From: a virus
DNA length: 64,000 bases
Strand: one strand, 5' to 3'
Virus record (IMG/VR): IMGVR_UViG_3300017991_000003
Location: 129,019 to 193,018 of that record
Part shown: piece by piece, positions 4,073-62,281 of the stretch
How positions within the stretch are numbered: position 1 is the stretch's first letter
Layout: each line of letters opens with the position of its first letter
The notes under the pieces: model-generated
Told to the model about the DNA's origin: nothing
Database searches by the model: none
The model's input: only the letters and a program-made list of their open reading frames with translations
Translations under genes and position numbers: made by a program

Positions 4073-4146
4073 ATGTAAAGGCATCGATGACCCGTGGGAG
4101 AGTTTCCCCACTCTGTGTTGAGCCCACAGATCATCGATGTGATTGA

Positions 4147-4232
4147 TGGTGCGGGAGGAGGGACTCGAACCCTCACGCCCGAAGGCAGTGGATTTTGAAT
4201 CCACCGTGTCTACCGATTCCAACCACCCCCGC
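4147..4232 (-). tRNA. tRNA-Leu (anticodon CAA), CCA encoded
   Basis: Reverse complement reads GCGGGGGTGGTTGGAATCGGTAGACACGGTGGATTCAAAATCCACTGCCTTCGGGCGTGAGGGTTCGAGTCCCTCCTCCCGCACCA. Anticodon loop TTCAAAA, long variable arm, canonical T-loop. Confidence 0.85.
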
Positions 4233-7758: not shown

Positions 7759-7770
7759 ACTCATGACTCA

Positions 7771-15711: not shown

Positions 15712-16778
15712 TGACGTCCCACAAGAGTACCCACAAGGACAAACTACCCGGCGGACTTGCGGACAAGATGCGAGATGCCGTCTTCGCGGCCTCCGCCCTC
15801 AAGGCGGGAACCAAGGTGGAGATGGAGCATACTGATGATCCGCAGCTAGCCAAGGAGGTAGCTAAGGACCATCTCGCCGAGGATCCGCAGTACTACAAGA
15901 AGCTGCGGAAGATGGAGAAGAAGGCCGGTGGCTACGCCACCGGCTCGGTTGAGGTCGCCTCGCAGGTAGGTCGTAGGGTCTTGCCCGCCTGGAGCCGGTC
16001 GAAGAAGATTCCCGCGGGAGCGAAGCGTGCCGCAGGTATGGTTAGGCAGCAGCCGTTCGCCCCTGGTGGGAAAAACAGCCTGATCCCCGCTTCGTCGACG
16101 ACTCGCAAGCCGCTCCCGACCTTCACCTCGACATCCAAGCCGATGAGCATGGCCAAGGCCGCGATGCTGCAAGGCATGGTGAACACGCTGGCTAAAGAGG
16201 CGGGGTGGGTGGATAAGCTCAAAGGCGGAGCCAAGAAGGCTCCCGGTGTGATCGCCCGAGAGGGCGCAGGCATCGCAACGTGGGGAGTCGGGGAAGGGGT
16301 GGCCAACAAGCTCATTCCCCGGTGGAAGCCCCCGACCCCGCGCGTGAAAGTGGCTGGGGTTGATAAGGAGGCCATCCTTCAGGCCTTGCTATGGGCGCCG
16401 GCCCTGTATGAAGGGGCCAAGGCCGCCGGCCGCGTAGCGGCTAAACCGTTCAAATCCCTCAAGCGTGGGCTAGCCCCGAAGAGCCCCAAGATCCAAGGAC
16501 CGCACCCTGAAGTGCGCGCTGCGAACACCCCTGAGGTGGCTAAGGTCGCGGTATGGGGGACGCTCGCCCGTGTGGCTACTAAGCTGGCCCCTCGATTGGC
16601 TAAGGTGGCTCCGAAGACGAGTGCCCGTCTAGCGACGGCTACGCCGCAATCTACCAAGGCGCTCGCAGGACGCGCCGGTAAGGCGGCTGCTAGGGATGCG
16701 GCGCTGGGAGCCGGTACGATGGGCGCAGCTAACGCGGCAAGCCACGTGGCCCGACCGAAACGCCCTAACCCTCTGTAG
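15711..16778 (+). CDS. Lys/Ala-rich basic protein (355 aa), possible internal virion or DNA-associated protein
   Basis: Complete ORF; repeated AKxxxK segments; conserved-looking N-terminal block KVEMEHTDDPQLAKEVAKDHLAEDPQYYKKL. Confidence 0.5.
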   Translation: MTSHKSTHKDKLPGGLADKMRDAVFAASALKAGTKVEMEHTDDPQLAKEVAKDHLAEDPQYYKKLRKMEKKAGGYATGSVEVASQVGRRVLPAWSRSKKIPAGAKRAAGMVRQQPFAPGGKNSLIPASSTTRKPLPTFTSTSKPMSMAKAAMLQGMVNTLAKEAGWVDKLKGGAKKAPGVIAREGAGIATWGVGEGVANKLIPRWKPPTPRVKVAGVDKEAILQALLWAPALYEGAKAAGRVAAKPFKSLKRGLAPKSPKIQGPHPEVRAANTPEVAKVAVWGTLARVATKLAPRLAKVAPKTSARLATATPQSTKALAGRAGKAAARDAALGAGTMGAANAASHVARPKRPNPL

Positions 16779-46086: not shown

Positions 46087-46634
46087 TGGACGCCTCCTCC
46101 AGCATTCAATCGGCCATGACTGGTCGGTTGCGGCTCTACAAGAGCACCGAGCGGCCAACGCTGGACGGTTGGGAGGACCTGGACCTCGTCCTTGACCGAC
46201 CCAACCTCGTGGTGGATACCGCTCAGACGGCCCTTCTGGGCCTTCTTCAGCGTCAGTTCACTGACTACGCCCCGGCGTACATCGTTCTGGGAGCGGGTGG
46301 CGACCTTGAACAGGTCTCGAAACAGGACTTCGGATCTCGCGTTGCCCCTGCGGTCACCGATACGGAGGTCCGAGAAGTCGTCGCCCGTCTTCCTATCCTT
46401 CAAATCACCCCAGACGACTCTGACGACACGAGCTGGGACTACGTGACCATCGCGCGGCCCCACGAGGCCAACACCACAAGCCTCAATGAGCTGGGGCTGG
46501 AGACGGCGAACAACACGCTGATCGCCCACGTGGTCACTGATCCTGACGCCGGCGAGTCCCGCGCCAAGAAGTACGTCAAGAGCAGCCTCGAGTACCTCGT
46601 GGTCCGGTGGACCATGACCTTCACCCTGAGCTAA
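46086..46634 (+). CDS. hypothetical protein (182 aa)
   Basis: Internal ATG (MDASSSIQSAMTGRL...) overlapping the upstream TGA by 1 nt (TGATG). Confidence 0.45.
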   Translation: MDASSSIQSAMTGRLRLYKSTERPTLDGWEDLDLVLDRPNLVVDTAQTALLGLLQRQFTDYAPAYIVLGAGGDLEQVSKQDFGSRVAPAVTDTEVREVVARLPILQITPDDSDDTSWDYVTIARPHEANTTSLNELGLETANNTLIAHVVTDPDAGESRAKKYVKSSLEYLVVRWTMTFTLS

Positions 46635-48976
46635 TGTCCCAGTCGATCTCCACTGCCTATCACGCGCTCGACACGTCGAGGCTCCAGAACACGCGCTTCG
46701 ATGGCGTGGTGCAGCCCGGGGTCTATGAGGGCTACAGAGCGCGCGCCAACTCGGGCCAACAGAACCTGATCGACCTCACGACCGGAGACGATGACGCGAG
46801 CGTCCTTGTTACCTCCGAAGGTGTGCGCGTTGAGGAGAGCGCTACGGTCTTTGCCGCGGTCCAGGTCGATTCGGCCGATCCGAGCCTGACCCGCATCGAT
46901 CTGCTCGTGGCTGAGTACCAGTACACGACGGACACGACGCAGACGCAGACCTACAAGCTCATCAAGGGCAAGAACCAGACGAACCTGAGCGCTGACCCCG
47001 TGCGCCCCACGGTGGAGAGTGACTATCAGGTGGCCCTGGCTTGGATCACGGTCCGTCCCCAGAAGAGCACTGGCGGGGCCATCCAGGCGAAGATCGAGAA
47101 CACCGACATCATCCACGTCCCCAAGGCGGCGTGGGCAGAGGCTCCTTCGGAGCTGTCGGGCCTCAAGCCGGAGATCGATCCCAACGACGCGCGCCGGCTC
47201 TTCGTCCATCAGGGTGTGATGCCCAACGTGGACGGCACCCGGGTCATCCAGTTCCTGGGCGGCTACAGCGACGTCATCGACCCGGACACCCTCGATAACC
47301 TCCAGGAGTACTGGTACACGTTCGGCGTCGATGATCAAGGCGATGTGGAGGTCATCGGCTCGGCGGCCACCCAAGCGGCTCTGCCTGACCTCACCAACAG
47401 CAGCCTGCCTGTGGCTCAGGTGCGGGCGCAGAAGATCGGTGGCCAGATCCAGCTCCAAGAGCTGGTGGACATTCGCTTCTCGTTCAGCCGTCAACTGGCC
47501 CAGGACCAGGAGGGCTACAACTACCGGGACCTTCTGGCCAACTCCGTCTTCCGGTACCTGCGGGTCGACACGTTCACGGACGACTCGCTGCTTGATCTCG
47601 ACTCCGTGGAGCTAGCCACAACTGAAGATGCTAGTGACCTCACGGCTGAGATTGATAGCAGCGACACCAGCCTGACCGTCACGTGGTCAGGAACGACGTC
47701 GGTGCCGTCCGAAGAGGTGGCTATCGTCACCACGAACCTGCTCTCCGGCACTGCGATCTCCAAGATCGAGCACTTCATGCTTGCCGTGGAGGCCGGCTTC
47801 GAGAACCTCGAGTTCCGCTACAGCACGAGCTCGGCTACGAGCGGGTTCAGCACTACGCGGCACAGCCCCGGCGAGATCGTCCGCATCCCGTTCAACGGCG
47901 CGACCAAGCTCTACATCAAGTTCCTGATCCCCGTCTCGGGGTTCAGCTCGGGCGAGGCCAAGATCTTCAGCTACGGCGCCCTGATCAACTTGAGTGGTGG
48001 CGCTGTCAACGCGACGACCCTGGGTGACCTAGGTCTCCTGGCTTTCCCCTACTCGGTCAACAACCTGGTGGCCAACGGCAGCTTCTACTACTGGAGCCGG
48101 CCGCTGTCCGACGGGACCGAGCCTGACCTGACCAGCCAGGATGAGCAGAGCTTCGCGCTCAGCTCCGAAGACGACTATCCGCTGGTGGCCGACGGCTGGC
48201 AGATGACCAAGTTCCCGACCCCTGTGGCCGGTGAGGTGGTCAAGCGCATCATTCGGGACCAGGGCGATAACACCGCTGCTACGGCGATCGAGATCACGAC
48301 CTCGGCCGCTGACGAGGCTGGCGCGGTCAACGTCATGGAGTACCGGATCCCGGTGGGCGCGGAGATGCAGGGGCAGTACCTGACCCTAGCCGCGGCCTTC
48401 GAGACCACGACGCCCCAGTCCCTTGCTGTGGGGCTCGCCATGTACCGGCGCACCTCCAGCGGCCTGACGCTCAAGGAGAAGGACGAGACCTACGCCAAGA
48501 CAACCAGCGGCGAGATCTACGTGCGCTCCAGCTCTGCCATCGGCCCCGACGTGGACCAGATCAGCGTCTACGTGCTCATGATCGCCAGCACGGCCGAGGT
48601 CACGCATAGGCTCTGGGATGTGCGCACGGCGGCTGGTGAGTTCTCGAGCCTCCCGATGCTCAAGGTGGTCGATGCCCCTGACGTCCTGCGCCAGTACTAC
48701 GAGCGTGGGCGCATCTACACGGCGCAGAACGTCACCGAGAACGTCCAGGTAGGCGCCGCGACCCAGTTCGGGGCCACCAAAGCCGAGAGCCTCGGCACCC
48801 TGGTGGGGCGCACGGTGCCTGTGAGTAGCGCCAACCGCTCGACCAACGTCGGCGACCTCATCTACTCGGCGGATCGTCACGGTCTGCTCATCACCGCAAC
48901 CTCGAGCTCTTCGGGCGTGTCCACTGTGGACGCTGATTGGGAGAGCTTCGTCAAGTTCGAGTCCAGCGTCCTATGA
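46634..48976 (+). CDS. tail-fibre-like structural protein (780 aa)
   Basis: ATG at 46634 overlapping upstream TAA (TAATG); large beta-rich protein. Confidence 0.55.
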   Translation: MSQSISTAYHALDTSRLQNTRFDGVVQPGVYEGYRARANSGQQNLIDLTTGDDDASVLVTSEGVRVEESATVFAAVQVDSADPSLTRIDLLVAEYQYTTDTTQTQTYKLIKGKNQTNLSADPVRPTVESDYQVALAWITVRPQKSTGGAIQAKIENTDIIHVPKAAWAEAPSELSGLKPEIDPNDARRLFVHQGVMPNVDGTRVIQFLGGYSDVIDPDTLDNLQEYWYTFGVDDQGDVEVIGSAATQAALPDLTNSSLPVAQVRAQKIGGQIQLQELVDIRFSFSRQLAQDQEGYNYRDLLANSVFRYLRVDTFTDDSLLDLDSVELATTEDASDLTAEIDSSDTSLTVTWSGTTSVPSEEVAIVTTNLLSGTAISKIEHFMLAVEAGFENLEFRYSTSSATSGFSTTRHSPGEIVRIPFNGATKLYIKFLIPVSGFSSGEAKIFSYGALINLSGGAVNATTLGDLGLLAFPYSVNNLVANGSFYYWSRPLSDGTEPDLTSQDEQSFALSSEDDYPLVADGWQMTKFPTPVAGEVVKRIIRDQGDNTAATAIEITTSAADEAGAVNVMEYRIPVGAEMQGQYLTLAAAFETTTPQSLAVGLAMYRRTSSGLTLKEKDETYAKTTSGEIYVRSSSAIGPDVDQISVYVLMIASTAEVTHRLWDVRTAAGEFSSLPMLKVVDAPDVLRQYYERGRIYTAQNVTENVQVGAATQFGATKAESLGTLVGRTVPVSSANRSTNVGDLIYSADRHGLLITATSSSSGVSTVDADWESFVKFESSVL

Positions 48977-49611: not shown

Positions 49612-50328
49612 ATGTGCGACGTCATCGCCCCTCTTGGAGTCAGCCTGTTCTTGATGACGGCTGCTTTCATCTATGCTGTTTTTCAGAACAAGAAACTACG
49701 GCAGGCTCCAAGGTGCATATTCCCCTCGTCGGCCTGCCCGCATGACGGTCACAAGAACAAGGTGATGCGTGAGAAGGCCGTGGCCTTCGAGGCCGCTTTC
49801 AACAACGCGGCACACGGCATGGCGGTCGTCGACATCGACGGGAGCTGGGTACGCGTGAACGATGCCCTTATCGACATGCTTGGGTACACGCGAGAGGAGC
49901 TCGTGTCCGGGATGACGTTCCAAGACGTCACGCATCCGGACGATCTCGACAAAGACCTGAAGCTGATGCAAAAGCTCCAGGACGGTCATATTCGGAAGTA
50001 TCACCTGGCCAAGAGGTACATCCGCAAGGACGCTCACGTGATCTACATCATGCTGTCCGTCAGCCTGATCCGTAACCTGAGTGATCATCCGCTGTTCTAT
50101 GTCTCGCAGATTATCGAGCGCACCGCAGACCAGGTGGAGCTCGATCGACTGCGGGAAGAGGCCCGCCGGTGGCGTTCTGAGGCGCTTTTGTGGGAGCAGC
50201 GCCTAGAGTCTACCCGGCAGCGCCATAACGAGGCGTTGGATCGGCTGATCCAGCCCTCGAGTGCTCCCTCCGTCGAAGAGCCGAGCACGTCTCAGCCGTC
50301 CACTAAGCCGCACCAGGATCATGACTAA
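49612..50328 (+). CDS. membrane-anchored PAS-domain protein with C-terminal coiled coil (238 aa)
   Basis: N-terminal hydrophobic helix (APLGVSLFLMTAAFIYAVF); PAS-like core FEAAFNNAAHGMAVVDIDGSWVRVNDALIDMLGYTREELVSGMTFQDVTHPDD...KDAHVIYIMLSVSLI...FYVSQIIERT; 5' region looks lower in GC than neighbours by eye. Confidence 0.6.
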   Translation: MCDVIAPLGVSLFLMTAAFIYAVFQNKKLRQAPRCIFPSSACPHDGHKNKVMREKAVAFEAAFNNAAHGMAVVDIDGSWVRVNDALIDMLGYTREELVSGMTFQDVTHPDDLDKDLKLMQKLQDGHIRKYHLAKRYIRKDAHVIYIMLSVSLIRNLSDHPLFYVSQIIERTADQVELDRLREEARRWRSEALLWEQRLESTRQRHNEALDRLIQPSSAPSVEEPSTSQPSTKPHQDHD

Positions 50329-50743
50329 CGAACCGGCCTCAAGACAACAAGTGGATACGCTGATCAAAGCTGTAGAGGGGCTCGCAGCCAAGGTAGACGC
50401 AAATACCGTGGCCATCGCCGAGCGTGGTTCGGACTTCCGAGCTATGAAGGCGGAGCTTGAGCGTGTGCGCCAGCAGGTGCATGACACCCATCAGTACATC
50501 CACACAGGCAATGGTCGTGAGGCCTTGTCGACGCGGATGCTTGTGGCGGAGCGTGAGTTGGCCGAGCTTGTGGCCAAGGCGCTAGCCAGGGAGCAGCTGG
50601 AGGCTGAGGAGCGCCTCACCAAGGACGCGGAGGCCCGGGCCTACGCCCGCAGCATCCGAATCGCCATCTTGACGAGTGCTGCGGCCCTACTAGGGGTGGG
50701 GATCAACATCGTGTACTTGATGGCGTCCGGGGGCGCGTCGTGA
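50321..50743 (+). CDS. coiled-coil protein with C-terminal transmembrane anchor (140 aa)
   Basis: ATG at 50321 (8-nt overlap with the PAS gene); heptad-like Ala/Glu/Arg-rich region; C-terminal IRIAILTSAAALLGVGINIVYLMASGG. Topology resembles XhlA-type phage membrane proteins, unverified. Confidence 0.45.
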   Translation: MTNEPASRQQVDTLIKAVEGLAAKVDANTVAIAERGSDFRAMKAELERVRQQVHDTHQYIHTGNGREALSTRMLVAERELAELVAKALAREQLEAEERLTKDAEARAYARSIRIAILTSAAALLGVGINIVYLMASGGAS

Positions 50744-51063
50744 TTGAGCACCTGCTAGCTGGCCTACTCGATGGACTCGAGAAGGAGGCCGGCCGTGCGC
50801 CGCGTGCTCCTGAGTACAAGGTCCTCGATAAACATCGAGTTGCCTTGACGCCTGGCGAGCGCGCCTACGTCATGGACAACAAGGCCGTCTGGCACCGCGC
50901 GTGGAAGAACGGCAAGCAGGTGCCCAGTCCTGCTGTCTGGAAGGCTGTCATGCCCGACGGTAAGGTTTGGTACGTGACCAACACGCATCGGGTTATGAAC
51001 GCGCGCCCCACGGTGCGTGGGGCTGTTAGCCGCTACCACAAGTTCATCAAGACCACGGCATGA
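50740..51063 (+). CDS. hypothetical protein (107 aa)
   Basis: GTG start overlapping upstream TGA; Trp/Lys-containing small protein. Confidence 0.4.
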   Translation: MIEHLLAGLLDGLEKEAGRAPRAPEYKVLDKHRVALTPGERAYVMDNKAVWHRAWKNGKQVPSPAVWKAVMPDGKVWYVTNTHRVMNARPTVRGAVSRYHKFIKTTA

Positions 51064-52142
51064 GCCAGCGCTTCGCCACCACCCACCAGGCGGTCAACCT
51101 CCTGCGTAACGGGAGCCTCGAGATGGTCGAGGCCCTGGACAGCGGTGCGCAGAAGCCCCATTTCTGGTCATTCGACGCCCTGATCCACGAGGCGCTTCAA
51201 GATGCGGTCGTGGTAAACACCTTCGAGGTCCTTCAGGAGGATCCTGGACCGGCCCCGGCTAGCCGGTTTCGTGTGGAGCTTGTCACGGGCGAGCCCTCCA
51301 AGCTCTATCAGGACACGACCCGGGACGCCTCGGTCCACGTCCAGGATTTCCCGGTCCCGCTAGCGCCGTCGTTGAAGCCGGCGCTGCCGCAGGGCCACTT
51401 TTCTACCGAGGTCCACGCCCTCCCCAAGGGGGATTACACGCTCTCCTTCGATGTTCGGGCCTACCAAGGCACCGTGTCGATCGATCCAGCTGCTTGGGAC
51501 CTCGTCGGAGCGGTGCAGACGCCGACCTACCCCACTGGCCAGACTTCCGTGACACTGGGAGCTAGTGCCATCTGGCGCCGGATCACCATCCAGTTCTCGG
51601 TCGACTACGCCCTGGGCGGTGTCGGGCTCCAACTAGAGCGCACAACGTCCTCCGGTCTGGCTGTGGTAGAGATCGGCAACGTCATGTTGGCTCAGGGGCA
51701 CTACCGCTACCTTCCGTACACCGGCGACCCGCTCCTCTCGGCCATCCCCAAGGGGGCGATCATCCTCACCATGGGGTCTGTGTGCCCTCCTGGCTTCGAG
51801 GAGATCGGCGAGGATGGTCTTGAGCCTCTGCCTGAGTGGGTGGCTGATGAGCCCAACATCCTGGCACGCAAGGGTAACTACCCGCGCGAGGGCACGGAGC
51901 TAGTGGGAACGACCTCGCATACTGTGGATGCTGTCGAGATCACTCCGGGCACCACGGATGCGCTCGAGTTCTCCGGTCCCGACAGCAAGGTGGTTGATGG
52001 GACTCTCGTCGACACCTCCAAATCCAATCCGGCGACGGACGAGCCCGGCGGGTCTCAGGGCGTCCCGGAGCATGATCACACGATTGAGACGGCAGGTACG
52101 CGGCCGGTGAGCCGCGGCTACCTCCTTTGCCGGCGCATCTGA
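51060..52142 (+). CDS. tail-fibre/receptor-binding-like protein (360 aa), member of a three-gene paralog set
   Basis: N-terminal NLLRNGSLEMVEA; C-terminal AIILTMGSVCPPGFEEIG followed by PEHDHTIE and an ending GYLLCRRI, shared in pattern with 52142..56359 and 56363..57481. Confidence 0.55.
   Translation: MSQRFATTHQAVNLLRNGSLEMVEALDSGAQKPHFWSFDALIHEALQDAVVVNTFEVLQEDPGPAPASRFRVELVTGEPSKLYQDTTRDASVHVQDFPVPLAPSLKPALPQGHFSTEVHALPKGDYTLSFDVRAYQGTVSIDPAAWDLVGAVQTPTYPTGQTSVTLGASAIWRRITIQFSVDYALGGVGLQLERTTSSGLAVVEIGNVMLAQGHYRYLPYTGDPLLSAIPKGAIILTMGSVCPPGFEEIGEDGLEPLPEWVADEPNILARKGNYPREGTELVGTTSHTVDAVEITPGTTDALEFSGPDSKVVDGTLVDTSKSNPATDEPGGSQGVPEHDHTIETAGTRPVSRGYLLCRRI
51549..51570 (+). repeat. inverted-repeat element copy D (degenerate, GTGACACTGG-gag-CTAGTGCCA) inside a CDS
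   Basis: In frame within gene 51060..52142, encoding SVTLGASAI; same phase as copy A. Confidence 0.4.
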
Positions 52143-55100
52143 TGGAAGTGAACACCCTCAACCAGCGCAACGCGCTGAACCTCCTGCGTAACGGCTCCTT
52201 CTCGCAAGGAGTCGCGCACTGGTGGGGGAGCTATCTACGCCACAAGCGCAGCTCCGGAGGCCAGACGCTGGGCTCCAATGCTCCTGAGTATGCTCTGGAG
52301 GTCTTCCAGGCCCAGGACACGAGCTATCCAGACTCGGTGACGCCCGGGGCGCATCAGTGGGTGGATCGCCCGGATCTATTCACCTATCCCAGCCAGCGGC
52401 TGGTGAGCGGCCTGCGCCTCATTCCTTTTACGGATGATCGAGCGCTGCTCCAGGTCGTGCCGGAGCTGACGGCGATGGATGGGGTCGTCCTCGCTGAGCC
52501 GGACGCTGCGGAGATCCCGACCTACTCCGATATCTTCCAGCACCCGTTCGTGCACCTGGAGCCGGATGGGACGCGTGTGAACATCGAGGCGGGTTCGGTC
52601 CTGCCTCTCACGGATACCCGGCGCCCGGAGTCGAGCGGCCTGTACCGTGTGGGCTCCTTCCTGGAGAACCGGAATGGAACCGGTGTGGCGTCGGACTATG
52701 ACCCGTCCAACTACCACGAGTACACCTACCACGGCCTGGAGATCAATCCGCTGAGCGGAGGCTCGTACAAGGCTCTGATGACCCACGAGACGAGCGGCGT
52801 GGTCACGGCCGCCATCACCGCGGAGGCGTCGGGCCTGTACACCGTGGTGACGATCTCGGTCGACAAGGACGTGGTGCGCGGCTTGGATCGCGAGCAGCCT
52901 GGGTACACCCCGGAGCTTGGCTTGGCGGTCGGTGATGTGTTCACCATGACCGAGCCGGTGCTGCGCTCGGGCGTGATCACTCAGGTGGCGATCTCGGACG
53001 ACCAGACGGTCGTGACGCTCATCCCACTCGCTAACTATGGCGACTACGTGGTCACCCCGTTCGTGGAGGACGTGACCCCGGAGGCCTGGTCGATCTACGC
53101 CACGTCGGTCGCTACGGTGCGGCGCACCATGCCGCTGTACGCCTACGACTTCACCCTGGGCTACACCTGCCGGATCAACGACGGCTACTCAGCCCCGGCC
53201 GAGACCTCGATGGTGGCCCGGACTCTTTCGGGCACGGGGACTCTTGTGGGCACAGGCACGGTCGGCGCTGAGATCCCGCGCATCGGCGGCAAGCGCAAGA
53301 TCGTCAACCTCCTAATCGACGAGGACACGGTCGACGGGGCGTGGCAACGCCGGCTCGAACGTCACTTCCGGGAGGCCTCGGCTCCGCTGGAGGGGCGTAT
53401 CGACCTCTCGGTCCTGCCCCCGGCCGGCTCCGAAGACAGCTACCCCACTCCAACCAGCAAGCTGCCTGACTCGGTCTACTGGTACTTCTTCACGGACCTG
53501 GATGGGGAACTTCCGAACCTCAACGATCCGCCGGAGTCGATCGAGGACACGCCGCACTTCCAGATCAACATCCCGGTCGACGAGAACAACCTGCCTCCGG
53601 CTGAGTGGCTGGCCGGCAACAAGGAGTTCACGGTCACGCCCTTCGGCGACACGTCCGAGCTCGAGGAGCAGTTCTCCTGGATCATTCCGCTGCTGCTCGT
53701 TCCTAGCTTCACGGCGCAGGCAGCGCTGCTAGAGGTCCCCGACGAGACCTATCCGGCTCTGCTGAAGCTCTACGTCGCCTGGGATACCGACGAGTTCGGC
53801 GCCTTCCCTAGCGTGGATGGCTTCAACATCGGCTGGAACAGCACAGTGACGGCTACCTGGGGCTTCAACGTCAAGGGTCTGAACGGCTCTGGTGCGCGCG
53901 CTCTGGTCTCGGACGTCTTCATGACCCACGGGGATCAGGCGCAGCGGCTCGAGAAGCTCGATGACACGGCCCTGCCTGTCACAGGCCCGCTCACCGATGA
54001 TGTCTCGATCGATCCCCTGCGCCACGGGGTCGATCTCTTGGAGAACGTGATCCCGCCCGGGGCGGTGGTCCTCTACGCCGGCGGCGGTACCTGCCCTCCG
54101 GGCTTCAAGCGAGTGGAGAGCTTCCCCGACGCCGCTGTAGCGGGAATCGGCTCGGACGCTGATCTGACCCTCACTGACGCAACCGTCGTCTACGACACGG
54201 CCCGTGATCGGACCAAGATCACCTGGACGGGTCGGGAGTTCCCGCTCTATGACGATGACGGGGGTGTGATCCCGATCCCTGAGCTCGCTCTCTCGGTCAG
54301 CAAGCCGATTCCAGGCATCCCGGACTCTCTCCAGGAGGTCAAGTTCACGCCGAGCCAGCAGGTGGTACAGCCGGGCATGGCGGTTCGTGTCCCTGAGTTC
54401 CTCATGGACTCGACGATCACCGAGACCGACCCGCTGTTCTCTTCGGAGACCCTCGGCAAGGCCATGCGCGCTGTAGGTGGCTGGGCGCAGCTGCATCGCC
54501 CCGAGGAGCCACTATTCAGCCGACTCGGTGTCGAGCTGTGGTTCCAGACCCAGAGCAGCATCACGACTTCTGGCGATGAGCGCCTGTCGTGGATCTTCCG
54601 CCAGGCCAAGAAGGTCGGCGATGATGTGATCAGCTGGGGCCTTCTGTACGTCACGTCTGGCACGGACGGGGGCAAGCTCGAGTGGCGTGTCGAGACGGTC
54701 GGCTCCCTGGGTGCCCGCACAGACGTCTATCGCATGACCACGGCGGCCCTTCCGGTTAGCGGATTCGCCGGTGACTGGATGCACATCATCGTGGAGTTCA
54801 GCGCGCCCAACTCCGGTACGGTCGGCGAGCCGGGCCAGGGCGTGACCCCTGATGTGCGCATCACCTTCAGCGATACGGAGGACTCCTACGGCACGCTGAT
54901 CGAGAGCCACAACTTCGGCGTGGTACAGGCAGGGGCTGATCTGGCCAAGGGCGCCGTGCTGCGGCTAGGCCACACCCCCGAGGTAGATGGCGCGCTGGGG
55001 ACGAGCTCCTATACCGACCCGGTGACCGGGAACCTGATCACCCTGGCCGCCAAGCACATCGACAACTTCCGCGTCTTCGATCTCTCTAGTCAGGAGATGA

Positions 55101-56359
55101 CCGAGTCGGAGCGTGTGGCTCTGTGGAATAGCGGGAAGGGTCTGGCCCTGGCACCGGCCGAGCTCCAGAGTCGTCTTGTCACCGAGGTGCGCTTCGATGA
55201 GGGCTACGGCTCCACGGCTGTGGACTCGGCCCCGGTCAACTGGACAGAGCCCGTCCAGCTGCAAGGCGCCGCCTCGTGGACTACGGGTCACGTGCTGGCC
55301 TTGGGCGGCTCAGACTTCGGGACGGACGACTACCGCGCGCCCTTCGAGGACAAGGCGCGTAGCTACCTCGTCACCAAGGTCGAGTCGATTCTGGTCGAGG
55401 CCGAGGGCGCCTTCGCCAGCGGCATCCCCTACAACCCCTCGGCCAACCCGGTTGGTAACGGGCTCGGGGACGTGCTGTACCCCTTCTCGGTGTCTGAAGA
55501 CGATCTGATGGAGGGGGATAAGACCATCATGCCGCTCGGCCCGGGCCTCACAGGCCAGTCGGCCACCTTCGATGGTGGGGCGGTGCTTTCTGGGCAGTTC
55601 TGGAACGGCACGTCGAGCGGAGGGCTGTTCTCGACGATCACGATGCGGAACTTCGGATCGCAGCCGTCAGATTGGAACCCGCAGGTGGGCGACGTCTACT
55701 TCCTCCAGTGGGAGAGCTCAGACAACCCCGGCCTGGCCCTCGGATGGTTCCCGGCACGTCTGACCGACATCACGATCGAGACGGGTATCCCGGTGTACCG
55801 CTACTACACCTTCCAGCGGTATGACGGGCGCAAGATCCAGCTGACCCCGGCCGAGTACCAGCAGCTCAGTTACGAGGACGCGTTGTCCGGGGACAAGGGC
55901 ACGATCACGGTCCGCCCGGTCAAGCTCTTTGGCGACGGGGAGCAGGTTGTGGCATCGGAGACCGGTGCCATCACTCCGCAGGCTGTGACCATCTCGGAGA
56001 CCTTCTACAACTCGACGCGCTACTGGGTGGTACGCCGGCTGAGCAACAACCTCGAGCTCGAGGTCAAGGGCGACCTATCCATCCCCACCGGTCAGACTGA
56101 GATCCATGTCGAGGCCACGGGCTATCTGCGCTACGATGATCCTGAGGACAAGATGGACTACGGCGCAGGCGGACACAGTCACCGGGTGGGTGGCGCTCTC
56201 ACGGCTACCGACGATTTGATCCCCAGGATCTCCGAGACCGGTTCCCTGGCGTCCGAGCCCTATCAGGCTGTGGCGCAGGATCACGACCATGGGTTCCAGA
56301 GCGTCTTCCGGTTCCCGCTGCCCAAGTTCCGCCTATTCACGGCCTGCCAGAAGCTCTAG
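52142..56359 (+). CDS. giant tail-fibre/adhesin-like protein (1405 aa) with LamG-like signature
   Basis: ATG at 52142 (TGATG overlap). N-terminal NLLRNGSFSQGVAHWW; LamG_3-like signature (HIDNFRVFDLSSQEMTESERVALWNSG); C-terminal VVLYAGGGTCPPGFKRV, GGHSHRV, QDHDHGF, ending FTACQKL. Confidence 0.6.
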   Translation: MEVNTLNQRNALNLLRNGSFSQGVAHWWGSYLRHKRSSGGQTLGSNAPEYALEVFQAQDTSYPDSVTPGAHQWVDRPDLFTYPSQRLVSGLRLIPFTDDRALLQVVPELTAMDGVVLAEPDAAEIPTYSDIFQHPFVHLEPDGTRVNIEAGSVLPLTDTRRPESSGLYRVGSFLENRNGTGVASDYDPSNYHEYTYHGLEINPLSGGSYKALMTHETSGVVTAAITAEASGLYTVVTISVDKDVVRGLDREQPGYTPELGLAVGDVFTMTEPVLRSGVITQVAISDDQTVVTLIPLANYGDYVVTPFVEDVTPEAWSIYATSVATVRRTMPLYAYDFTLGYTCRINDGYSAPAETSMVARTLSGTGTLVGTGTVGAEIPRIGGKRKIVNLLIDEDTVDGAWQRRLERHFREASAPLEGRIDLSVLPPAGSEDSYPTPTSKLPDSVYWYFFTDLDGELPNLNDPPESIEDTPHFQINIPVDENNLPPAEWLAGNKEFTVTPFGDTSELEEQFSWIIPLLLVPSFTAQAALLEVPDETYPALLKLYVAWDTDEFGAFPSVDGFNIGWNSTVTATWGFNVKGLNGSGARALVSDVFMTHGDQAQRLEKLDDTALPVTGPLTDDVSIDPLRHGVDLLENVIPPGAVVLYAGGGTCPPGFKRVESFPDAAVAGIGSDADLTLTDATVVYDTARDRTKITWTGREFPLYDDDGGVIPIPELALSVSKPIPGIPDSLQEVKFTPSQQVVQPGMAVRVPEFLMDSTITETDPLFSSETLGKAMRAVGGWAQLHRPEEPLFSRLGVELWFQTQSSITTSGDERLSWIFRQAKKVGDDVISWGLLYVTSGTDGGKLEWRVETVGSLGARTDVYRMTTAALPVSGFAGDWMHIIVEFSAPNSGTVGEPGQGVTPDVRITFSDTEDSYGTLIESHNFGVVQAGADLAKGAVLRLGHTPEVDGALGTSSYTDPVTGNLITLAAKHIDNFRVFDLSSQEMTESERVALWNSGKGLALAPAELQSRLVTEVRFDEGYGSTAVDSAPVNWTEPVQLQGAASWTTGHVLALGGSDFGTDDYRAPFEDKARSYLVTKVESILVEAEGAFASGIPYNPSANPVGNGLGDVLYPFSVSEDDLMEGDKTIMPLGPGLTGQSATFDGGAVLSGQFWNGTSSGGLFSTITMRNFGSQPSDWNPQVGDVYFLQWESSDNPGLALGWFPARLTDITIETGIPVYRYYTFQRYDGRKIQLTPAEYQQLSYEDALSGDKGTITVRPVKLFGDGEQVVASETGAITPQAVTISETFYNSTRYWVVRRLSNNLELEVKGDLSIPTGQTEIHVEATGYLRYDDPEDKMDYGAGGHSHRVGGALTATDDLIPRISETGSLASEPYQAVAQDHDHGFQSVFRFPLPKFRLFTACQKL

Positions 56360-56362
56360 GTC

Positions 56363-57481
56363 ATGGCGACTCCAGACGTACCCACGTACCACAACCTCGC
56401 TGCCAGCAGCCGTAGCCGGCTGAATCTGGTGAGCAACGGGGGCTTCACGGCCTACTCCGGGGGGTTGGGCGTCGTGGAGGACACGTTGGCGCTTCGTAAG
56501 GGCGGGGATGCCGAGGTCGTGCGGCAGGATCTGATCGACAAGCGGCTCTACCAGGACGTGAGTGCCTCGTTCTCGGTCCCTGCGGAGGCTGGTGGAGAGA
56601 ACATCCTGGGCCATTGGGACATCTACGGCACCGATGGCGCTCTCGAGGTCGCCCCTGTCGACGACCAGACCGACCAGGTGATCCCTTCGCAGGACGGAGG
56701 CAACCTGATGCGGGTTTCCTTCACGTCCGCGGGCACGATCACCATGGATCAGCGGCTCGAGGACACCGCTCCGCTGCGTGGACAGATCCTGAGCGTCACG
56801 TACACGGGTCGCAGCTTCACTCAATCCGTGCTGGTCGACGCCCAGGTGGTCGTTGACGGCGAGGTGGTCTCCAATCTACAGCAGCAGTCCAAGACCTTCG
56901 GTGCCCGGCGCCGGCCGCTCTTCACAGCGACCATTCCGAGCACTGCCAAGGAGGTCCTGATCCGCTTCGAGCTCTCTGGAGGGCCTGGAAGCGCGGTTGG
57001 ATTCGCTGGAATCGCCGTTTTCCTGGGGGATACGGGCCCGACGGCGGCCTACACCCCTAGCGTGGCTGATCTCACAGTGTCCTCGGGCACGGTGATCCTG
57101 TGGAGTGGTGAGACCTGCCCGGCGGGGTACCGTACCCTGCCTGGGAGCACGGAACGCATGGCCTTGCTCACGGGGGGACCGGCAAACTTTATGTCGGCCG
57201 GGGGCGAGGCCACCTTCACCGGTGGTCAGGACACCCATGATCACCACCCTGATGGGGCCGCAGATACTCTGGAAGCCCCTTTGACAAGCGCACACGACAC
57301 CGACACGCCGATCCCCTTCGAGAAGCAGACCGCGGTCCACGGTGTGGAGTTCGGATCTCAGGATCAGTACCCCGGTGAGAAGCCCGTGTACGCTCTAGGC
57401 GTCGAGCACACCCACAAGACGCGCTCGGACATGACGTCGATCCCACCCTGCTTCCCGGTGCGCTACTGCGTCAAGATCTGA
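56363..57481 (+). CDS. tail-fibre/receptor-binding-like protein (372 aa), paralog set member
   Basis: N-terminal SRLNLVSNGGFTAYSG; C-terminal VILWSGETCPAGYRTLPG, DTHDHHPDG, EHTHKT, ending VRYCVKI. Confidence 0.55.
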   Translation: MATPDVPTYHNLAASSRSRLNLVSNGGFTAYSGGLGVVEDTLALRKGGDAEVVRQDLIDKRLYQDVSASFSVPAEAGGENILGHWDIYGTDGALEVAPVDDQTDQVIPSQDGGNLMRVSFTSAGTITMDQRLEDTAPLRGQILSVTYTGRSFTQSVLVDAQVVVDGEVVSNLQQQSKTFGARRRPLFTATIPSTAKEVLIRFELSGGPGSAVGFAGIAVFLGDTGPTAAYTPSVADLTVSSGTVILWSGETCPAGYRTLPGSTERMALLTGGPANFMSAGGEATFTGGQDTHDHHPDGAADTLEAPLTSAHDTDTPIPFEKQTAVHGVEFGSQDQYPGEKPVYALGVEHTHKTRSDMTSIPPCFPVRYCVKI

Positions 57482-57750
57482 TGGCCCGTCCTGCTGTAAC
57501 CCTCTACTACCAGAGCAACTGCGGTTTCTGCCCAGATGCGATTGAGGGGTGTGCGGGCCTCGTAGAAGCCCTGGGTGCTCCTATCCTTATTCGTAAGCCG
57601 ACTTTGCAGGAAATGAAGTCCGGGCAGATCCCTGGCTATCCCGCCCTGTTCGTGCCGGCTGGGGTCCGAGGCCTCACCCGCCCCTATCTCCTGGTAGGTG
57701 CGGCCCTCCCCGACCTCCTTGACCAGTTGCTGAGCTCCACGGATGGCTGA
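57481..57750 (+). CDS. glutaredoxin/thioredoxin-fold protein (89 aa)
   Basis: VTLYYQSNCGFCPDAIEG has a CxxC active-site motif at the position expected after beta-strand 1; 1-nt overlap upstream and 8-nt overlap downstream. Confidence 0.5.
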   Translation: MARPAVTLYYQSNCGFCPDAIEGCAGLVEALGAPILIRKPTLQEMKSGQIPGYPALFVPAGVRGLTRPYLLVGAALPDLLDQLLSSTDG

Positions 57751-60700
57751 CCTCCGGATTCTCACCGAACTCCTTCCCCTGGCCTTCGCCGGCGAGGCGT
57801 ACTCTGTGCGCCTTCAGGCGCGGGGCGGGACCGCTCCGTACACCTGGTCGGTTCAGTCGGGCACCCTGTTCACCGGGATGTCGCTGGATTCGAGCACTGG
57901 AGAGCTCACCGCGGCTGCCAGCGCGCTACTAGGTACCGAGGTAGGGGATCGTACGATCACGTTCCGCGTCACGGACAGCCTAGCGGCTACGCATGACCTC
58001 GAGGTGACGCTGACGCTGCGCCCGGCGAACTACCGCCGAGCCACGGCGCTCATGCTGGACCCGCGCCTGGAGCGCATGCTGTCCATCTGGGATGTCGGCG
58101 TGGCCACCCGCGCTCAGATCACGGCACACTTCGCCCAAGGGCCGAAGTTCACCAGCATCACGCCGGCGGGGACATTCAAAGAGGACGTCTGCGTTCACTA
58201 CGCGGACCAGATCTGCTACGGCCAGACTCCCGCCAGCCCCGCGAGCCCCGGTGCGAGCCCCGGCCAGACGGTCTGGGACAAGATCCAAGAGCTCGATGGC
58301 GGCGGTAAGGTCCTCGCCGAGCCCAAGATCATCACGGTCAGCGCCTACAGCTCGACCGAGATCAATACGAGCCCGCAAGAGGTGGTGGGTTTTGGGCCTG
58401 ACGACGATCTCTTGGGCGAGGGCCTGGGTGTGCGCGTCGTCGGTATGGACGAGGGTCCGGTCTACGGTAGCCCTGAGAACACGCTGGGCTATTTCGCCCT
58501 GGGCCAGCGCTTCACGCTTCCGGCTGAGGCGAGCCCCTCGAGCGTCACCCTGTACCTCAACCGGTTCAGCAGCCCCGCCAGTCCGGGTAACCTGACCGTC
58601 GGCCTGTCGCTGGCGAGCCCGGGTAACATCCAGATCCCCGCTGGTTCGTCCTACGCTGCGTTCGGCGACGGCTCCGCGGTGGTGGCCTCCGGTACGCTGA
58701 GCCTTGCGACGGTCTCGAGCGACGCCTCCCGAACCAGCTGGACCTCGGCGCACGCCTACGACATCCCCCTCACGCTTCAGAGCCCTTTCACGGGTCTGGA
58801 TGCGAACCGCAACTACTACCTGACGATCGCTGCTGACTTCGCCGGCAGCCCGTTCCTGGAGATTGCGGCCAGTGTGGACGACGTGACGAGCCTTGTGGCG
58901 GGCAGCGAGGCCATCGCCCTCACCACGGCCTTCGCCACCTCGAGCCCGTACTACAGCCCCACCTCGGCGGCGAGTCCTGCCCTCAAGGCGCCCTTCGAGC
59001 TTGCTACTAGCCCGCAAAACGTGACCGGGTTGGCCTTCGGTCTCAACGCTGGCTGGACCGGTGCGACTGTCGGCATCGTCACGCTTGCCGAGGTGGATCC
59101 CTACTCCGGGAGCCCGGCGACCAACGACCGGTACTGGGTGGGTGAATCCACGGCCACGGCCGCCGATGTGCGGGCCATGGCCTTCCAGTTGATCGACGGC
59201 TACGACCGCACCGGCTCGAGCCCGGTCCTGGACAAGACCAACTTCAACGAGTACGTCGATGCGTACGGCAACCAAGCCAGCATCGTCGAGGCTCAAACCA
59301 CCGCAGGGGCTGAGATCAACCCCAGCGGCGGTGGACAGACAGACGCCGACGGCTTTCTCTCGTCCGGTGGCGCGAAGCTCAGGGTCCAACTTCTTCCCAA
59401 CTCTCGCGGTACTGTTCCTGAGCTTCCCTTCCGAGTGCTTGCGGGAAGCCGTCGGCTGCTTTCCAACCTAGGCGCGGACAGCCTGATCCGCACCGCCAAC
59501 AAGACCGGCTCGACCGATGCTGAGGTCCTGGCGGCGCTGAACCTCACGAGCGCTTCCAACCCGCTTCTCAGTCTCAGCCAGACGCTCAAGCCTGACTCCT
59601 CGGGCAACCTGGAGCTCACGGTCAACAGCGGTGCGTTGGCGTGGAACCTGAACCCCGGCTCCTACACGGCTGAGCTTCAGTTCAACGCCCAGCTCCGGGC
59701 GGCGGCTCTTGGAAGCCCCTCCGGCTCGGTCGACTTCGACAGCAACGGTGTTCTGACTCTGGACGCGGCGGACAGCACGATCACGCTGACACCGGTTCCC
59801 GGTTCCAACAAGATCCAGATCGCTGCCCAGGTCGGCATCACGACCCTCAACACCGTCGACCCCGACGGCTCGGGCAACCTGACCCTGGTGGCGGACGAGG
59901 ACTCGAGCCACGCAGGCCAGACCTTCATCACGGTCTCGGCTGGCTCGGCCCCCAACACCGTCGAGATCGGCACCGCCATTCCGGACGCCACGACCAGCCT
60001 CGCTGGTCTGCTCTCCACCACGGACAAGCAACGCCTGGACGCGCTGTACGCTGGTAGCGACGACGTGACGACGGCAGGCACTGGTGCGCTGGCTGGTGGT
60101 CATGCCCACGAGGCCACTGCGCTCAACCTGGGCCGCACGCTGACCGGCTATTCGACGCTCCTGAGCTCGATGAACATCGCCGATGCGCTCGAGGCCCTGA
60201 ACATGGTGCTCTACGCCCAGTTCAGCCCGGCGTCCGAGGCTCCGAACCTCGCCACGGCGACCACGAGCTTCTCGGCCTTTGCTACCGGCTACCTAGCGGA
60301 CGACTCGAGCACCATCGACTACTCGAGCCCCGGCTACGCGGCTGGTGATCTAGTCACCACGCTGGTCGAGAGCACCGCTGCGACGGTCTTCACGGTCACC
60401 AGCGCCCCCTTCGGTAACCCGGGCAACTCCGGTACGGTCAAGGCCCAGCTCTATGACAGCCCCGGCGCTACGAGCCCTTGGGTCACGCTAGACACCATCG
60501 ATCTGGACCAGACCTACTCGAACTCCCTGTCGGCGATCGGAGGCAGCCCGCCGAACTACACGTCGGTGGCGAGCCACATGCAGGCCAACCCGCTCAACGA
60601 GGCGGGCAGCCCGACCACCAAGATCAGCTTCCAGGCGGTCTCCTATAGTGGCCTGAGCACGGCCGGCGCCCCTGTCTTCCAGCTCCAGGTCAAGACGACC

Positions 60701-62281
60701 CCGGTGCTGTCGGACATGCAGAACGCGCTTGGCTACAACCAGGTGCGCCTGTTCCAGGACACCGGTGCGACGACCCATGCCTCGACCGCGGTCACGCTGG
60801 TCAAGGACAACTACCAGGGTGTGAGCGATCCGATCATCAACCAGTCGGACCTCGTACCGCTCTCGAGCGTCACTCCCGTGTGGGTCAGTGGTGTGCCGCA
60901 CTACGCCGCGGCGACCGATCCGGCTTTCCGCGTGGATGCGGACAGCTTGTTCGACATCGCGTACATCCAGCAGCCTGTGCGGGTCTGGGATACGGCGGAC
61001 AGCCCGACCGAGATCACGTTCAACTACTACGATGCGGCTGCTGCCAGCCCGTCGGACGCTACCTGGATCCCGAGCCCCTCGACGCCCTTCCGTCTGGGTG
61101 TCGTGGGTGAGCCGTATGCGGTGACCGCTGAGGACATGACCTTCCTGGTCGGTACCGATGAGGTCTCGAGCCGGCTCCTGACCCTGGAAGTCTCCGATCC
61201 GCACGGCGTCCAAGCCTCCCAGGCCTTCGCCTACTTCGATGCGGCGTCCAGCCCGGGCCGCCTGATGCACTTGGGTCGTGGCGGCCTCTCGAGCGGCAAC
61301 CTGACGACCGAGTACTTCACCAACGAGAAGTACCGCCTGGACATCAATGACTACGCCGGGGTCGACTTCGCAAGCCCCGTGGCTAGCCCGAGCTTCACGT
61401 CGATCACCGTCCAGCCCTCTGGCAACGGCACGACCGATGCGGACACCTACGGCTGGCCCAACGAGTACGCGCTGACCACCTTCTCGGCCACGAACACCTG
61501 GAACGCGACGACCGGTAGCCCCAGCGCCGAGTTCCGAAGCGGTGTGAGTGTGACCTACGCGGCTGGTACTCTCAGCAGCCTGCCTGCTGCGGTGACCGAC
61601 TTGGGTCTTGTGCACCCTGGCTACTGCTCGCTCTACAACTTCGACGAGAACCTGTACGCCCCGGCGGCTGCGAGTCCCTACAACACGTACGCGGCCCACA
61701 GCAGCCCGCTGGGCTACTACGACGCTTACAGCGCGCAGGGCTCGGTGGTCTACCACCGCCTCTTCCAGAGCTCGACGGCCACCAACCAAGGGCGTCTCAG
61801 GATCTACGGCTACAAGCGCGGTACGGCCAGCCCGACGCCGACGGTCCTCTCCTATGAGAACGTCGGCAGTCCGATCACGCTGAGCGACTTCACGGGATCC
61901 TTCCTCAATGTCGGCCCGGCTTCGAGCCCGACCCCGACGATGAGCGGTATCAGCCTTGAGGTCAAGTTCCCGAGCGCCACCAAGACGCCCAAGGACAACC
62001 CTGGCGCGACTGGCTGGCTCGACATGCTGACGACCCCCGGCTCGAGCCTCTACGCGCTCGGCGAGGACGGCTACGGGTGCGCTGACACCTCGGTCCACAG
62101 CCCCGGCATGGTCCAGGGCGCTGGCTACGTGGATGTCTACTGGCGCTCCGGCTCCTTCACCACCGGCCTGAGCAGCAACCAGGCGGTGGTTCGTGTGGGC
62201 ATCCACGACAAGGAGTGGGTGATCACCAACATGCAGATGCTCAACCAGAGCACGGACACCCCCTGGACCAACGGCGCCTGA
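57743..62281 (+). CDS. giant fibre/adhesin-like protein (1512 aa)
   Basis: Single 4.5-kb open frame; Ser/Thr/Ala/Gly/Pro-rich with many ASP/SPxSP motifs; antisense ORFs inside are artefacts. Confidence 0.6.
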   Translation: MADLRILTELLPLAFAGEAYSVRLQARGGTAPYTWSVQSGTLFTGMSLDSSTGELTAAASALLGTEVGDRTITFRVTDSLAATHDLEVTLTLRPANYRRATALMLDPRLERMLSIWDVGVATRAQITAHFAQGPKFTSITPAGTFKEDVCVHYADQICYGQTPASPASPGASPGQTVWDKIQELDGGGKVLAEPKIITVSAYSSTEINTSPQEVVGFGPDDDLLGEGLGVRVVGMDEGPVYGSPENTLGYFALGQRFTLPAEASPSSVTLYLNRFSSPASPGNLTVGLSLASPGNIQIPAGSSYAAFGDGSAVVASGTLSLATVSSDASRTSWTSAHAYDIPLTLQSPFTGLDANRNYYLTIAADFAGSPFLEIAASVDDVTSLVAGSEAIALTTAFATSSPYYSPTSAASPALKAPFELATSPQNVTGLAFGLNAGWTGATVGIVTLAEVDPYSGSPATNDRYWVGESTATAADVRAMAFQLIDGYDRTGSSPVLDKTNFNEYVDAYGNQASIVEAQTTAGAEINPSGGGQTDADGFLSSGGAKLRVQLLPNSRGTVPELPFRVLAGSRRLLSNLGADSLIRTANKTGSTDAEVLAALNLTSASNPLLSLSQTLKPDSSGNLELTVNSGALAWNLNPGSYTAELQFNAQLRAAALGSPSGSVDFDSNGVLTLDAADSTITLTPVPGSNKIQIAAQVGITTLNTVDPDGSGNLTLVADEDSSHAGQTFITVSAGSAPNTVEIGTAIPDATTSLAGLLSTTDKQRLDALYAGSDDVTTAGTGALAGGHAHEATALNLGRTLTGYSTLLSSMNIADALEALNMVLYAQFSPASEAPNLATATTSFSAFATGYLADDSSTIDYSSPGYAAGDLVTTLVESTAATVFTVTSAPFGNPGNSGTVKAQLYDSPGATSPWVTLDTIDLDQTYSNSLSAIGGSPPNYTSVASHMQANPLNEAGSPTTKISFQAVSYSGLSTAGAPVFQLQVKTTPVLSDMQNALGYNQVRLFQDTGATTHASTAVTLVKDNYQGVSDPIINQSDLVPLSSVTPVWVSGVPHYAAATDPAFRVDADSLFDIAYIQQPVRVWDTADSPTEITFNYYDAAAASPSDATWIPSPSTPFRLGVVGEPYAVTAEDMTFLVGTDEVSSRLLTLEVSDPHGVQASQAFAYFDAASSPGRLMHLGRGGLSSGNLTTEYFTNEKYRLDINDYAGVDFASPVASPSFTSITVQPSGNGTTDADTYGWPNEYALTTFSATNTWNATTGSPSAEFRSGVSVTYAAGTLSSLPAAVTDLGLVHPGYCSLYNFDENLYAPAAASPYNTYAAHSSPLGYYDAYSAQGSVVYHRLFQSSTATNQGRLRIYGYKRGTASPTPTVLSYENVGSPITLSDFTGSFLNVGPASSPTPTMSGISLEVKFPSATKTPKDNPGATGWLDMLTTPGSSLYALGEDGYGCADTSVHSPGMVQGAGYVDVYWRSGSFTTGLSSNQAVVRVGIHDKEWVITNMQMLNQSTDTPWTNGA

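Follow-up and report, generated by a model that had tools for sequence, protein, structure and literature searches.

Three adjacent genes, here called A, B and C, lie in a 64,000-nucleotide stretch of the virus record IMGVR_UViG_3300017991_000003 (positions 129,019-193,018 of that record; G+C ~63%), which we refer to as the window. Their products open with a similar motif and carry a related module rich in conserved cysteine and histidine residues. An earlier note on this DNA had taken them for alternative receptor-binding proteins that share an attachment domain, which raises the question of whether the three genes replace one another or belong together, and of which known proteins they resemble. 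The reading we prefer, at a probability of about 0.62, is that A, B and C are co-translated paralogues that belong to the tail fibres or the baseplate periphery of a large uncultured phage of the contractile-tail type; all three have a fibre-tip module, joined in A and C to a beta-sandwich, and they form a fixed set. The open reading frames (ORFs) and motifs that the earlier note had described for the three genes were all found where it had placed them, and are given here with the other features of the locus.

51060..52142, + strand: gene A, 360 residues; predicted beta-sandwich resembling a carbohydrate-binding module (CBM) at ~20-215 and a contiguous Cys/His tip module at ~216-360.
51096..51119, + strand: NLLRNGSL of A, predicted to open the CBM-like domain as its first strand; N17 does not vary within the A family.
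51747..51797, + strand: collar-type strand and hairpin of A, PKGAIILTMGSVCPPGF, with CPPGF at 51783-51797; G239, C242, P243, G245 and F246 are invariant.
51918..52079, + strand: His-bearing part of the A module, with H287 (G-x3-H) and H338-D-H340; HDH at 52071-52079.
52128..52142, + strand: terminal C357-R-R-I of A and stop codon, the stop overlapping the start of B (TGATG).
52142..56359, + strand: gene B, 1405 residues; N-terminal NLLRNGSF, a large N-terminal region and a tip module in two pieces.
52178..52201, + strand: NLLRNGSF of B.
54050..54106, + strand: first half of the B module, IPPGAVVLYAGGGTCPPGF, with C651 and CPPGF at 54092-54106; the hairpin is at residues 633-655.
54119..56161, + strand: insertion of ~690 residues in B, after the collar-type hairpin and ahead of the first HxH.
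56174..56359, + strand: second half of the B module, residues 1345-1405, with H1345-S-H1347 (56174-56182), H1381-D-H1383 (56282-56290), C1402-Q-K-L and the stop codon.
56363..57481, + strand: gene C, 372 residues; predicted CBM-like beta-sandwich at 20-222 (predicted local distance difference test score, pLDDT, >90) and a contiguous tip module at 230-372.
56423..56446, + strand: NLVSNGGF of C.
57077..57130, + strand: collar-type strand and hairpin of C, VSSGTVILWSGETCPAGY, with C252 and CPAGY at 57116-57130.
57236..57415, + strand: histidines of C, H292-D-H-H295 ... H349-T-H351, with HDHH at 57236-57247 and HTH at 57407-57415.
57467..57481, + strand: terminal C369-V-K-I of C and stop codon, the stop overlapping the start of the next ORF (TGATG).

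The module had been described as lying at the end of each protein. This is the case for A and C, where it is contiguous, but not for B, where CPPGF is at residue 651 of 1405 and some 690 residues precede the HxH motifs and Cys tail. Similarly, of the proposed terminal pattern [YF]-x2-C-x-[KR]-[IL], the part that is common to all three proteins is a terminal C-x-[KR]-[ILV], while the aromatic residue is not kept in C (VRYCVKI).

Relatedness and gene order of A, B and C

The background for judging the motifs was the set of 663 six-frame ORFs of at least 50 residues in the window (78,910 residues). Among these, the patterns G-x(1-3)-CP-x-G-[FYW] and HxH...C-x-[KR]-[ILV]-end were confined to A, B and C, and the N-terminal pattern N-[LIVM]2-x-N-G-x-[FLM] was found in the same three proteins and as one internal copy in the ORF at 46607-48976. 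Pairwise similarity is weak, with BLASTP E-values of 3e-4 for A-B, 0.011 for A-C and 0.24 for B-C. The metagenomic homologue families, as searched, comprised 11 sequences for A, 4 for B and 11 for C. Against all window ORFs, the hidden Markov model (HMM) of the A family matched C (2.3e-5) and B (8.3e-5), and that of the C family matched A (2e-6) and B (7e-4); in both searches the trio alone was matched. The A and C families align with each other over ~240 residues (A118-359 and C139-370; hhalign 96.3%, E 1.9e-9), and the CPPGF region of B aligns with a joint A+C module profile (96.2%, E 2.6e-9). Of the module positions, G, C-P-x-G, G-x3-H, H-x-H, P and the final C show no variation among 22 sequences from families A and C. 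Pairwise and profile alignment of the termini, a check that the earlier note had named, therefore supports its shared motifs through the family HMMs and hhalign. Judged by these alignments, A, B and C are paralogous, and they share more than chance would give.

The ORF with the internal copy of the N-terminal pattern (46607-48976, + strand) encodes a cysteine-free protein of 789 residues with NLVANGSF, resembling the start of a CBM, near residue 486. It was rejected as a relative of the N-terminal domain, as the HMM of the A/C N-terminal domain gave an E-value of ~1. In PHROG, it has one weak match, to phrog_9994 (E 0.001), a family whose function is unknown.

A, B and C are part of a run of same-strand ORFs that comes after a giant ORF of 3406 residues, and they lie downstream of the ORF at 31942-34029, which encodes a baseplate wedge subunit of the gp6/J type (phrog_6, E 1.4e-17). 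From the ORF at 50740-51063 through A, B, C and an 89-residue ORF to a 1512-residue ORF, each stop overlaps or nearly touches the next start; the junctions are, in order, ATGA, TGATG, a 3-nucleotide gap, TGATG and ATGGCTGA. From the stop/start overlaps, A, B and C are therefore coupled in translation and belong to a single structural block.

The same trio is found elsewhere. Fully covered loci were the window, L001-3, L005, L008 and L012, representing five divergent lineages, and in every one the module profile picked out three module genes and no more, always ordered A-like, B-like, C-like. Identity across the lineages is 34-66% (54-65% for L001-3 and ~35% for L005). In L008, the A protein has 548 residues and two small ORFs lie between A and B. 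In L012 (CAZCPY010000001.1, 168944-185984), the trio is on a 190-kb contig, of G+C 50%, from a metagenome-assembled genome (MAG) bin of an uncultured member of the Rhodobacterales. This contig is probably a related phage genome, and its binning gives a weak hint of an alphaproteobacterial host range for the group. A related-locus search with the C-family alignment gave one locus, and proteins identical to A and C are present on a 193-kb metagenomic contig. The retention of the trio order in five lineages, together with the coupling of the genes, argues against interchangeable receptor-binding cassettes. The three genes look like a fixed set of paralogues, and the earlier note's proposal of alternative receptor-binding proteins is unlikely.

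A known arrangement of this kind is that of T4 gp10, gp11 and gp12, which are products of sequential genes on one polycistronic mRNA, have a superimposable common fold, are trimeric and interact with one another at the baseplate periphery (PMC3004832). Likewise, the window has, downstream of a gene for a gp6-like wedge protein, three sequential, coupled genes whose products have one C-terminal module in common. However, A, B and C differ from the T4 proteins in their sizes and N-terminal domains. Their extended profile scored 5.1 bits against gp10 and 0.5 bits against gp11, which is no detectable similarity. Because there is no sequence link to gp10 or gp11, we treat the likeness to the T4 trio as an analogy.

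The tip module and its superfamily

The alignments give good support for the order of elements in the module: a predicted hydrophobic strand leads into the G-x-CPxG[FY] hairpin, followed by a middle part with G-x3-H(xH) and HxH, and by a last strand that runs to C-x-[KR]-[ILV]. The first His motif is a single His in A, and B has two motifs of the HxH type. When the A+C module profile was searched against 1.84 billion representative proteins, 253 were matched at E<=1e-3 and 102 at E<=1e-10. Most members of this family have 320-400 residues and the two-domain build of A and C, and the module ends within 0-1 residue of the C-terminus in 154 of 162 proteins. Near-invariant positions across 99 close members are N21, N25 and G26 of the N-terminal motif, the Cys pair and the histidines. 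Pfam Collar (PF07484) matched none of the 99 at E<=0.01; the module family is therefore unannotated.

The weaker matches of the profile are a more classical subfamily (below, the classic subfamily), with the pattern ...VPSGAIILWxGxxCPxGYTRL...GGSxTHxHGG...LT..EMPSHSH...GHTHxI...RPAFKTVLLCKKD. The A+C module aligns with it end to end (hhalign 99.3%, E 9.3e-21). In searches of the PDB, the classic subfamily matched Pa223 gp60 (9NXK; E 1.3e-13, reaching its last residue), Pvc13 of the Photorhabdus virulence cassette (PVC) (9QGO; 3.5e-7), 6OV6 (4e-4) and the T4 gp37 tip (2XGF; 4.4e-3), with weak matches to short tail fibres. Pa223 gp60 is a homotrimer, and its C-terminal tip at residues 124-215 resembles that of T4 gp37 (10.1101/2025.06.11.659172); the C-terminus of Pvc13 is homologous to the domains with which short tail fibres bind the host (PVC preprint). 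The solved fibres 9NXK, 9QGO and 2XGF have in common with the module a hydrophobic strand, a P-x-G-aromatic hairpin, G-G-x-x-H-x-H, one or more additional HxH and a final hydrophobic strand at the C-terminus. Unlike A and C, they carry an anchor or shaft at the N-terminus, their tip is not preceded by a CBM-like domain, and they do not have the Cys pair of the trio (for example, AQIPAGW...FFIIKN in 9NXK).

Collar itself is matched among the more remote relatives of the module (n=48), five of which match Pfam Collar and two, weakly, Gp10_C. The 24-bit gathering threshold of Collar was reached by three of the 48 (P0168 with 36.3 bits, P0161 with 24.6 and P0142 with 24.3). In P0142 and P0161, which were both checked against the module alignment, the Collar match is the segment aligned with IPKGAIILTMGSVCPPGF. 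The extended profile aligns to T4 gp12 residues 334-356, with a per-comparison E-value of 2.9e-5; this is the start of the Collar-type segment of gp12, placed at 342-397 in a T4 review. The first ~25 positions of Collar (IPxGxIxxW...PxGW) align with the same segment of the module, HxH is present in both, and a C-terminal strand returning to the domain start is also seen in gp12 (...LNYIIKVKE). The HxH histidines of T4 gp12 are reportedly zinc ligands. The pattern C-[DN]-G ... (Y)G ... L-P-[DN]-[LM]-R-G, which marks the latter half of Collar, is missing from A, B, C and the family consensus.

The pattern had been called collar-like in the earlier note, and at the level of the superfamily this stands, as remote relatives pass the Collar threshold and the classic subfamily matches solved tips. 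It does not extend to membership of PF07484: the Collar HMM search that the note had suggested gave no match to A, B or C at E<=1, and the second half of Collar is absent. The description of the three as fibre-type proteins is upheld, since the module is related to collar and HxH tips through the classic subfamily and the remote relatives. On these profile comparisons, there is good support for placing the tip module in a Pfam-invisible branch of the trimeric fibre-tip superfamily that includes Pa223 gp60, Pvc13, T4 gp37 and T4 gp12/Collar. A-B-C is a new branch of a known phage host-recognition protein family, not a new kind of system.

The divided module of B has counterparts in other proteins. 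Ten unrelated large proteins (1564-2052 residues) have 221-263 extra residues at the same module site, with both halves individually significant and the split between profile positions ~54-73 and 51-71. As these ten are split at the site used in B, the tip module tolerates domain insertion at one fixed loop, and by alignment B is an extreme example of such insertion. P0026 and the L012 copy of B are without ~270-300 residues of the insert. In Pfam, the B insert has no family match, with isolated segments even at E<=10. By eye, part of it (...HIDNFRVFDLSSQEMTESERVALWNSGKG) had a likeness to a LamG/ConA-like lectin domain; this candidate had no Pfam match at E<=10 and is not claimed.

The N-terminal domain and the alternative readings

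The AlphaFold2 model of A, made with an 11-sequence alignment, has a confident beta-sandwich at ~20-215, with the module at pLDDT <50. That of C, made with the 99-sequence alignment, has a sandwich at ~20-222 and overall scores of pLDDT 85.5 and 0.77 for the predicted template modelling (TM) score, pTM. Foldseek searches of the PDB with both models gave CBM4-2, CBM61, CBM16 and CBM22 at E-values of 1e-6 to 1e-5, and in the same range the CBM-type domains of two tailspikes, CBA120 TSP4 and K2-2 TSP, with target-normalised TM scores of ~0.6-0.66 for these CBM-type matches; the beta-sandwich fold is common to all of these and to A and C. In BFVD, the best structural matches are almost all annotated as tail fibres, many of them arising through the CBM domain alone. 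For example, ORF25 of Xanthomonas phage OP1 was rejected as a relative of the module, as it starts with NKLLNPGF and has the CBM-like part only, with no Cys/His module. The Foldseek matches of the two-domain model are dominated by the CBM domain, and the fold of the module is not separable in that search.

A first strand of the form N-L-[LV]-x-N-G-x-F is typical of the Pfam family CBM_4_9 (PF02018), which was matched by 1 of the 99 relatives (E 0.0011). A, B and C have no match to this family, and the sandwich of A and C differs in being N-terminal to a tip, not distal. On the models, NLLxNGxF is the first strand of a CBM4/16/22-like (lectin-type) beta-sandwich in A and C. We take NLLRNGSF as a sandwich strand and not a docking peptide because AlphaFold and Foldseek place the CBM-like fold there. 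This does not agree with the shared N-terminal attachment domain of the earlier note, since the sandwich that the motif opens starts ~10-20 residues from the N-terminus. The sole candidate for an N-terminal tether is the 10-20 residues ahead of the sandwich.

By analogy with the solved relatives, A, B and C would each be a homotrimer. In such trimers, the HxH pairs of the three chains would form octahedral metal sites on the trimer axis, one in A and two in B and C, within a short needle that has G-x3-H(xH) on its descending part and HxH on its ascending part. The last strand would then return and pack against the first hairpin, at the site of the Cys pair specific to this subfamily, forming a disulfide or a tight contact. 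Contacts with host surface glycans or receptors would likely be made by the CBM-like domains and by the inserts of B.

The common N-terminal motif and fibre-tip module could instead mean that the three proteins occupy one baseplate site through the motif and differ in C-terminal receptor-binding domains, which would widen the host range. The size of B and its variable inserts are as expected for specificity-determining parts, and phages with several tailspikes, such as CBA120, are known. However, the motif is, on the models, the first strand of a ~200-residue sandwich, the C-terminal part is the common one rather than the variable one, and the order of the paralogues is kept in five lineages, unlike exchangeable cassettes; we consider this reading improbable. 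That same constancy, with always three adjacent module genes in one order and stop/start overlaps favouring equimolar synthesis, might suggest a 1:1:1 heterotrimeric A:B:C fibre whose pseudo-threefold metal site would draw one tip module and one set of HxH from each chain. Against this, 9NXK, 9QGO and 2XGF are all homotrimers, and the paralogous T4 gp10, gp11 and gp12 form three separate homotrimers. The spacing of the His motifs (51 residues in A, 36 in B and 57 in C) is a poor fit to a symmetric needle, and two small ORFs part A from B in L008, so that a heterotrimer seems quite improbable.

The conserved cysteines and histidines could also bind zinc within a single chain, as the Cys2His2/3 site of a domain that is compact and monomeric, the likeness to trimeric HxH needles then being superficial. 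Two Cys and three His are jointly invariant in the 22 A- and C-family sequences and nearly so in the 99, A has no other cysteine, and both ends of the module reach pLDDT 80-92 in the monomer model of C. However, relatives without both cysteines keep HxH and have hydrophobic pairs (V/L, T/I, I/I) that suggest a buried contact, the full-length homology of the module to trimeric fibre tips is strong, and its His-bearing middle is the least confident part of the monomer model. We regard such a zinc site, too, as improbable. Lastly, secreted or cell-surface lectins or enzymes that are not part of the virion would account for the lack of an N-terminal shaft or anchor, and CBM-like domains are common in glycoside hydrolases. 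This is very improbable, given that the genes belong to a block with coupled translation, downstream of the gene for a baseplate wedge subunit, that the module is homologous to fibre tips, and that the Pfam scan detected no catalytic domain or signal peptide.

Several results weigh against the preferred reading of a fixed set of paralogous fibre proteins. The Pfam scan of A, B and C, with Collar and Gp10_C included, gave nothing at E<=1, and CBM_4_9 also gave no match at that threshold; the sole PHROG match of the three was a marginal tail-fibre match for A. Searched directly against the PDB, the A+C profile had 9QGO as its best match at E 0.11, so that the link to solved fibres is transitive. 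Phmmer searches of the PDB with A, B and C gave nothing meaningful, and the B-family profile gave nothing there. B is the least well connected of the three in two respects: against the A/C N-terminal domain profile, its first ~30 positions alone match (E 0.017), and its tail alone aligns with the A+C module profile in the correct register at a non-significant E of 0.1. In the monomer model of C, pLDDT falls to 58-70 in the middle of the module, and a recognisable N-terminal shaft or anchor is absent from A, B and C. Finally, neither the whole region nor C nor P0125, a relative of the classic type, had a match among 50,697 cultured-phage records by megablast and tblastn.

If the preferred reading of a fixed fibre set is correct, the general picture of how tail fibres work is unchanged. 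The module represents a sizeable family, of ~250 clusters at 50% identity, which current domain libraries miss (Pfam covers it in none of the 99 members tested), and its profile link to solved tips offers a way to annotate the receptor-binding proteins of large phages that are uncultured. The fibre build would be unusual, with a lectin-type domain directly N-terminal to the tip, no shaft, a conserved set of three paralogues, and a tip that accepts insertions of 220-690 residues at one fixed site.

The cysteine pair, the CxxC gene and other neighbours

The two cysteines of A are both members of the conserved pair (C242 and C357), while B and C have three cysteines each; neighbouring structural proteins of 223, 695 and 789 residues have none. 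Where both positions of the pair are aligned, 147 proteins have C/C, three have hydrophobic residues other than Cys at both (V/L, T/I and I/I), and four are mixed. The hydrophobic pairs that replace the cysteines fit two core residues in contact, either as a disulfide or by tight packing. Directly after gene C is a gene that might be related to these cysteines:

57481..57750, + strand: possible accessory gene, 89 residues, with a predicted thioredoxin-fold CxxC motif (CGFC at 57520-57531); coupled to C and to the 1512-residue ORF.

This ORF starts on the stop codon of C, and carries TLYYQSNCGFC and IPGYPALF, the latter a motif of the cis-Pro type. Homologues are found 3' of gene C in L001-3 (CGLC) and L008 (CGHC), and also in L009; CGHC is the motif of protein disulfide isomerase. 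In L004 the homologue (CNIC, 7674-7943) is 3 kb downstream, and none is present within 8 kb in L012. CGFC/CGLC/CGHC/CNIC and IPG[YV]PALF are conserved among the homologues. The 89-residue protein has no match in Pfam or PHROG. A profile of its three closest homologues matched protein disulfide isomerase in the PDB weakly (E 0.0095), and 16 of the 19 PDB matches of the profile are thioredoxin-fold proteins, with protein disulfide isomerases and thioredoxins at E 0.01-1.

One possibility is that the Cys pair is functional, as a disulfide or redox-sensitive contact between the first hairpin and the last strand, and that the CxxC protein is a phage redox chaperone which forms, isomerises or protects the pair while the fibre is assembled in the reducing cytoplasm. 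We consider this doubtful. The idea derives from the co-location of the genes, and in L004 the conserved neighbour of the CxxC gene is the downstream large protein and not the trio, so the CxxC protein may serve either the fibres with the Cys pair or that downstream protein. A search of the literature gave no earlier example of a tail-fibre operon with a thioredoxin-like gene. A functional link between the Cys pair and the CxxC gene would be a rare instance of a phage that encodes redox help for the assembly of its virions, with an oxidative-folding helper dedicated to a tail fibre.

The ORF of 1512 residues that follows the CxxC gene (57743-62281, + strand) has many short (A/S)-S-P motifs. 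Its homologues in L001-3 and L008 (1510-1536 residues) are also 3' of the CxxC gene, with a weak He_PIG match in the relatives. In L008, a gene for a patatin-like phospholipase (PF01734; 16028-16921) is 3' of the 1536-residue ORF, which is itself downstream of the trio.

On the other side of the trio, the ORF of 3406 residues (34036-44256, + strand) is directly 3' of the baseplate wedge gene. It has no PHROG match, and the window copy has a weak match to TIG; the counterpart in L001-3 (3435 residues) has a weak match to Laminin_G_3. Within the tail and baseplate block, the gene at 49612-50328 (+ strand) encodes a protein of 238 residues that has a PAS domain (PF00989, E 8e-11) and whose N-terminal segment is hydrophobic; the syntenic relative L001-3 does not have this gene. 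The next ORF (50261-50743) encodes 160 residues, with a hydrophobic segment at the C-terminal end.

Farther away in the window, an ORF of 355 residues with a DUF5661 match (15711-16778, + strand; PF18905, E 4e-12) is upstream of one of 1262 residues, the latter having no family match. Two adjacent tRNA-Leu genes, with the anticodons TAG and CAA, are at 3986-4232 on the - strand.

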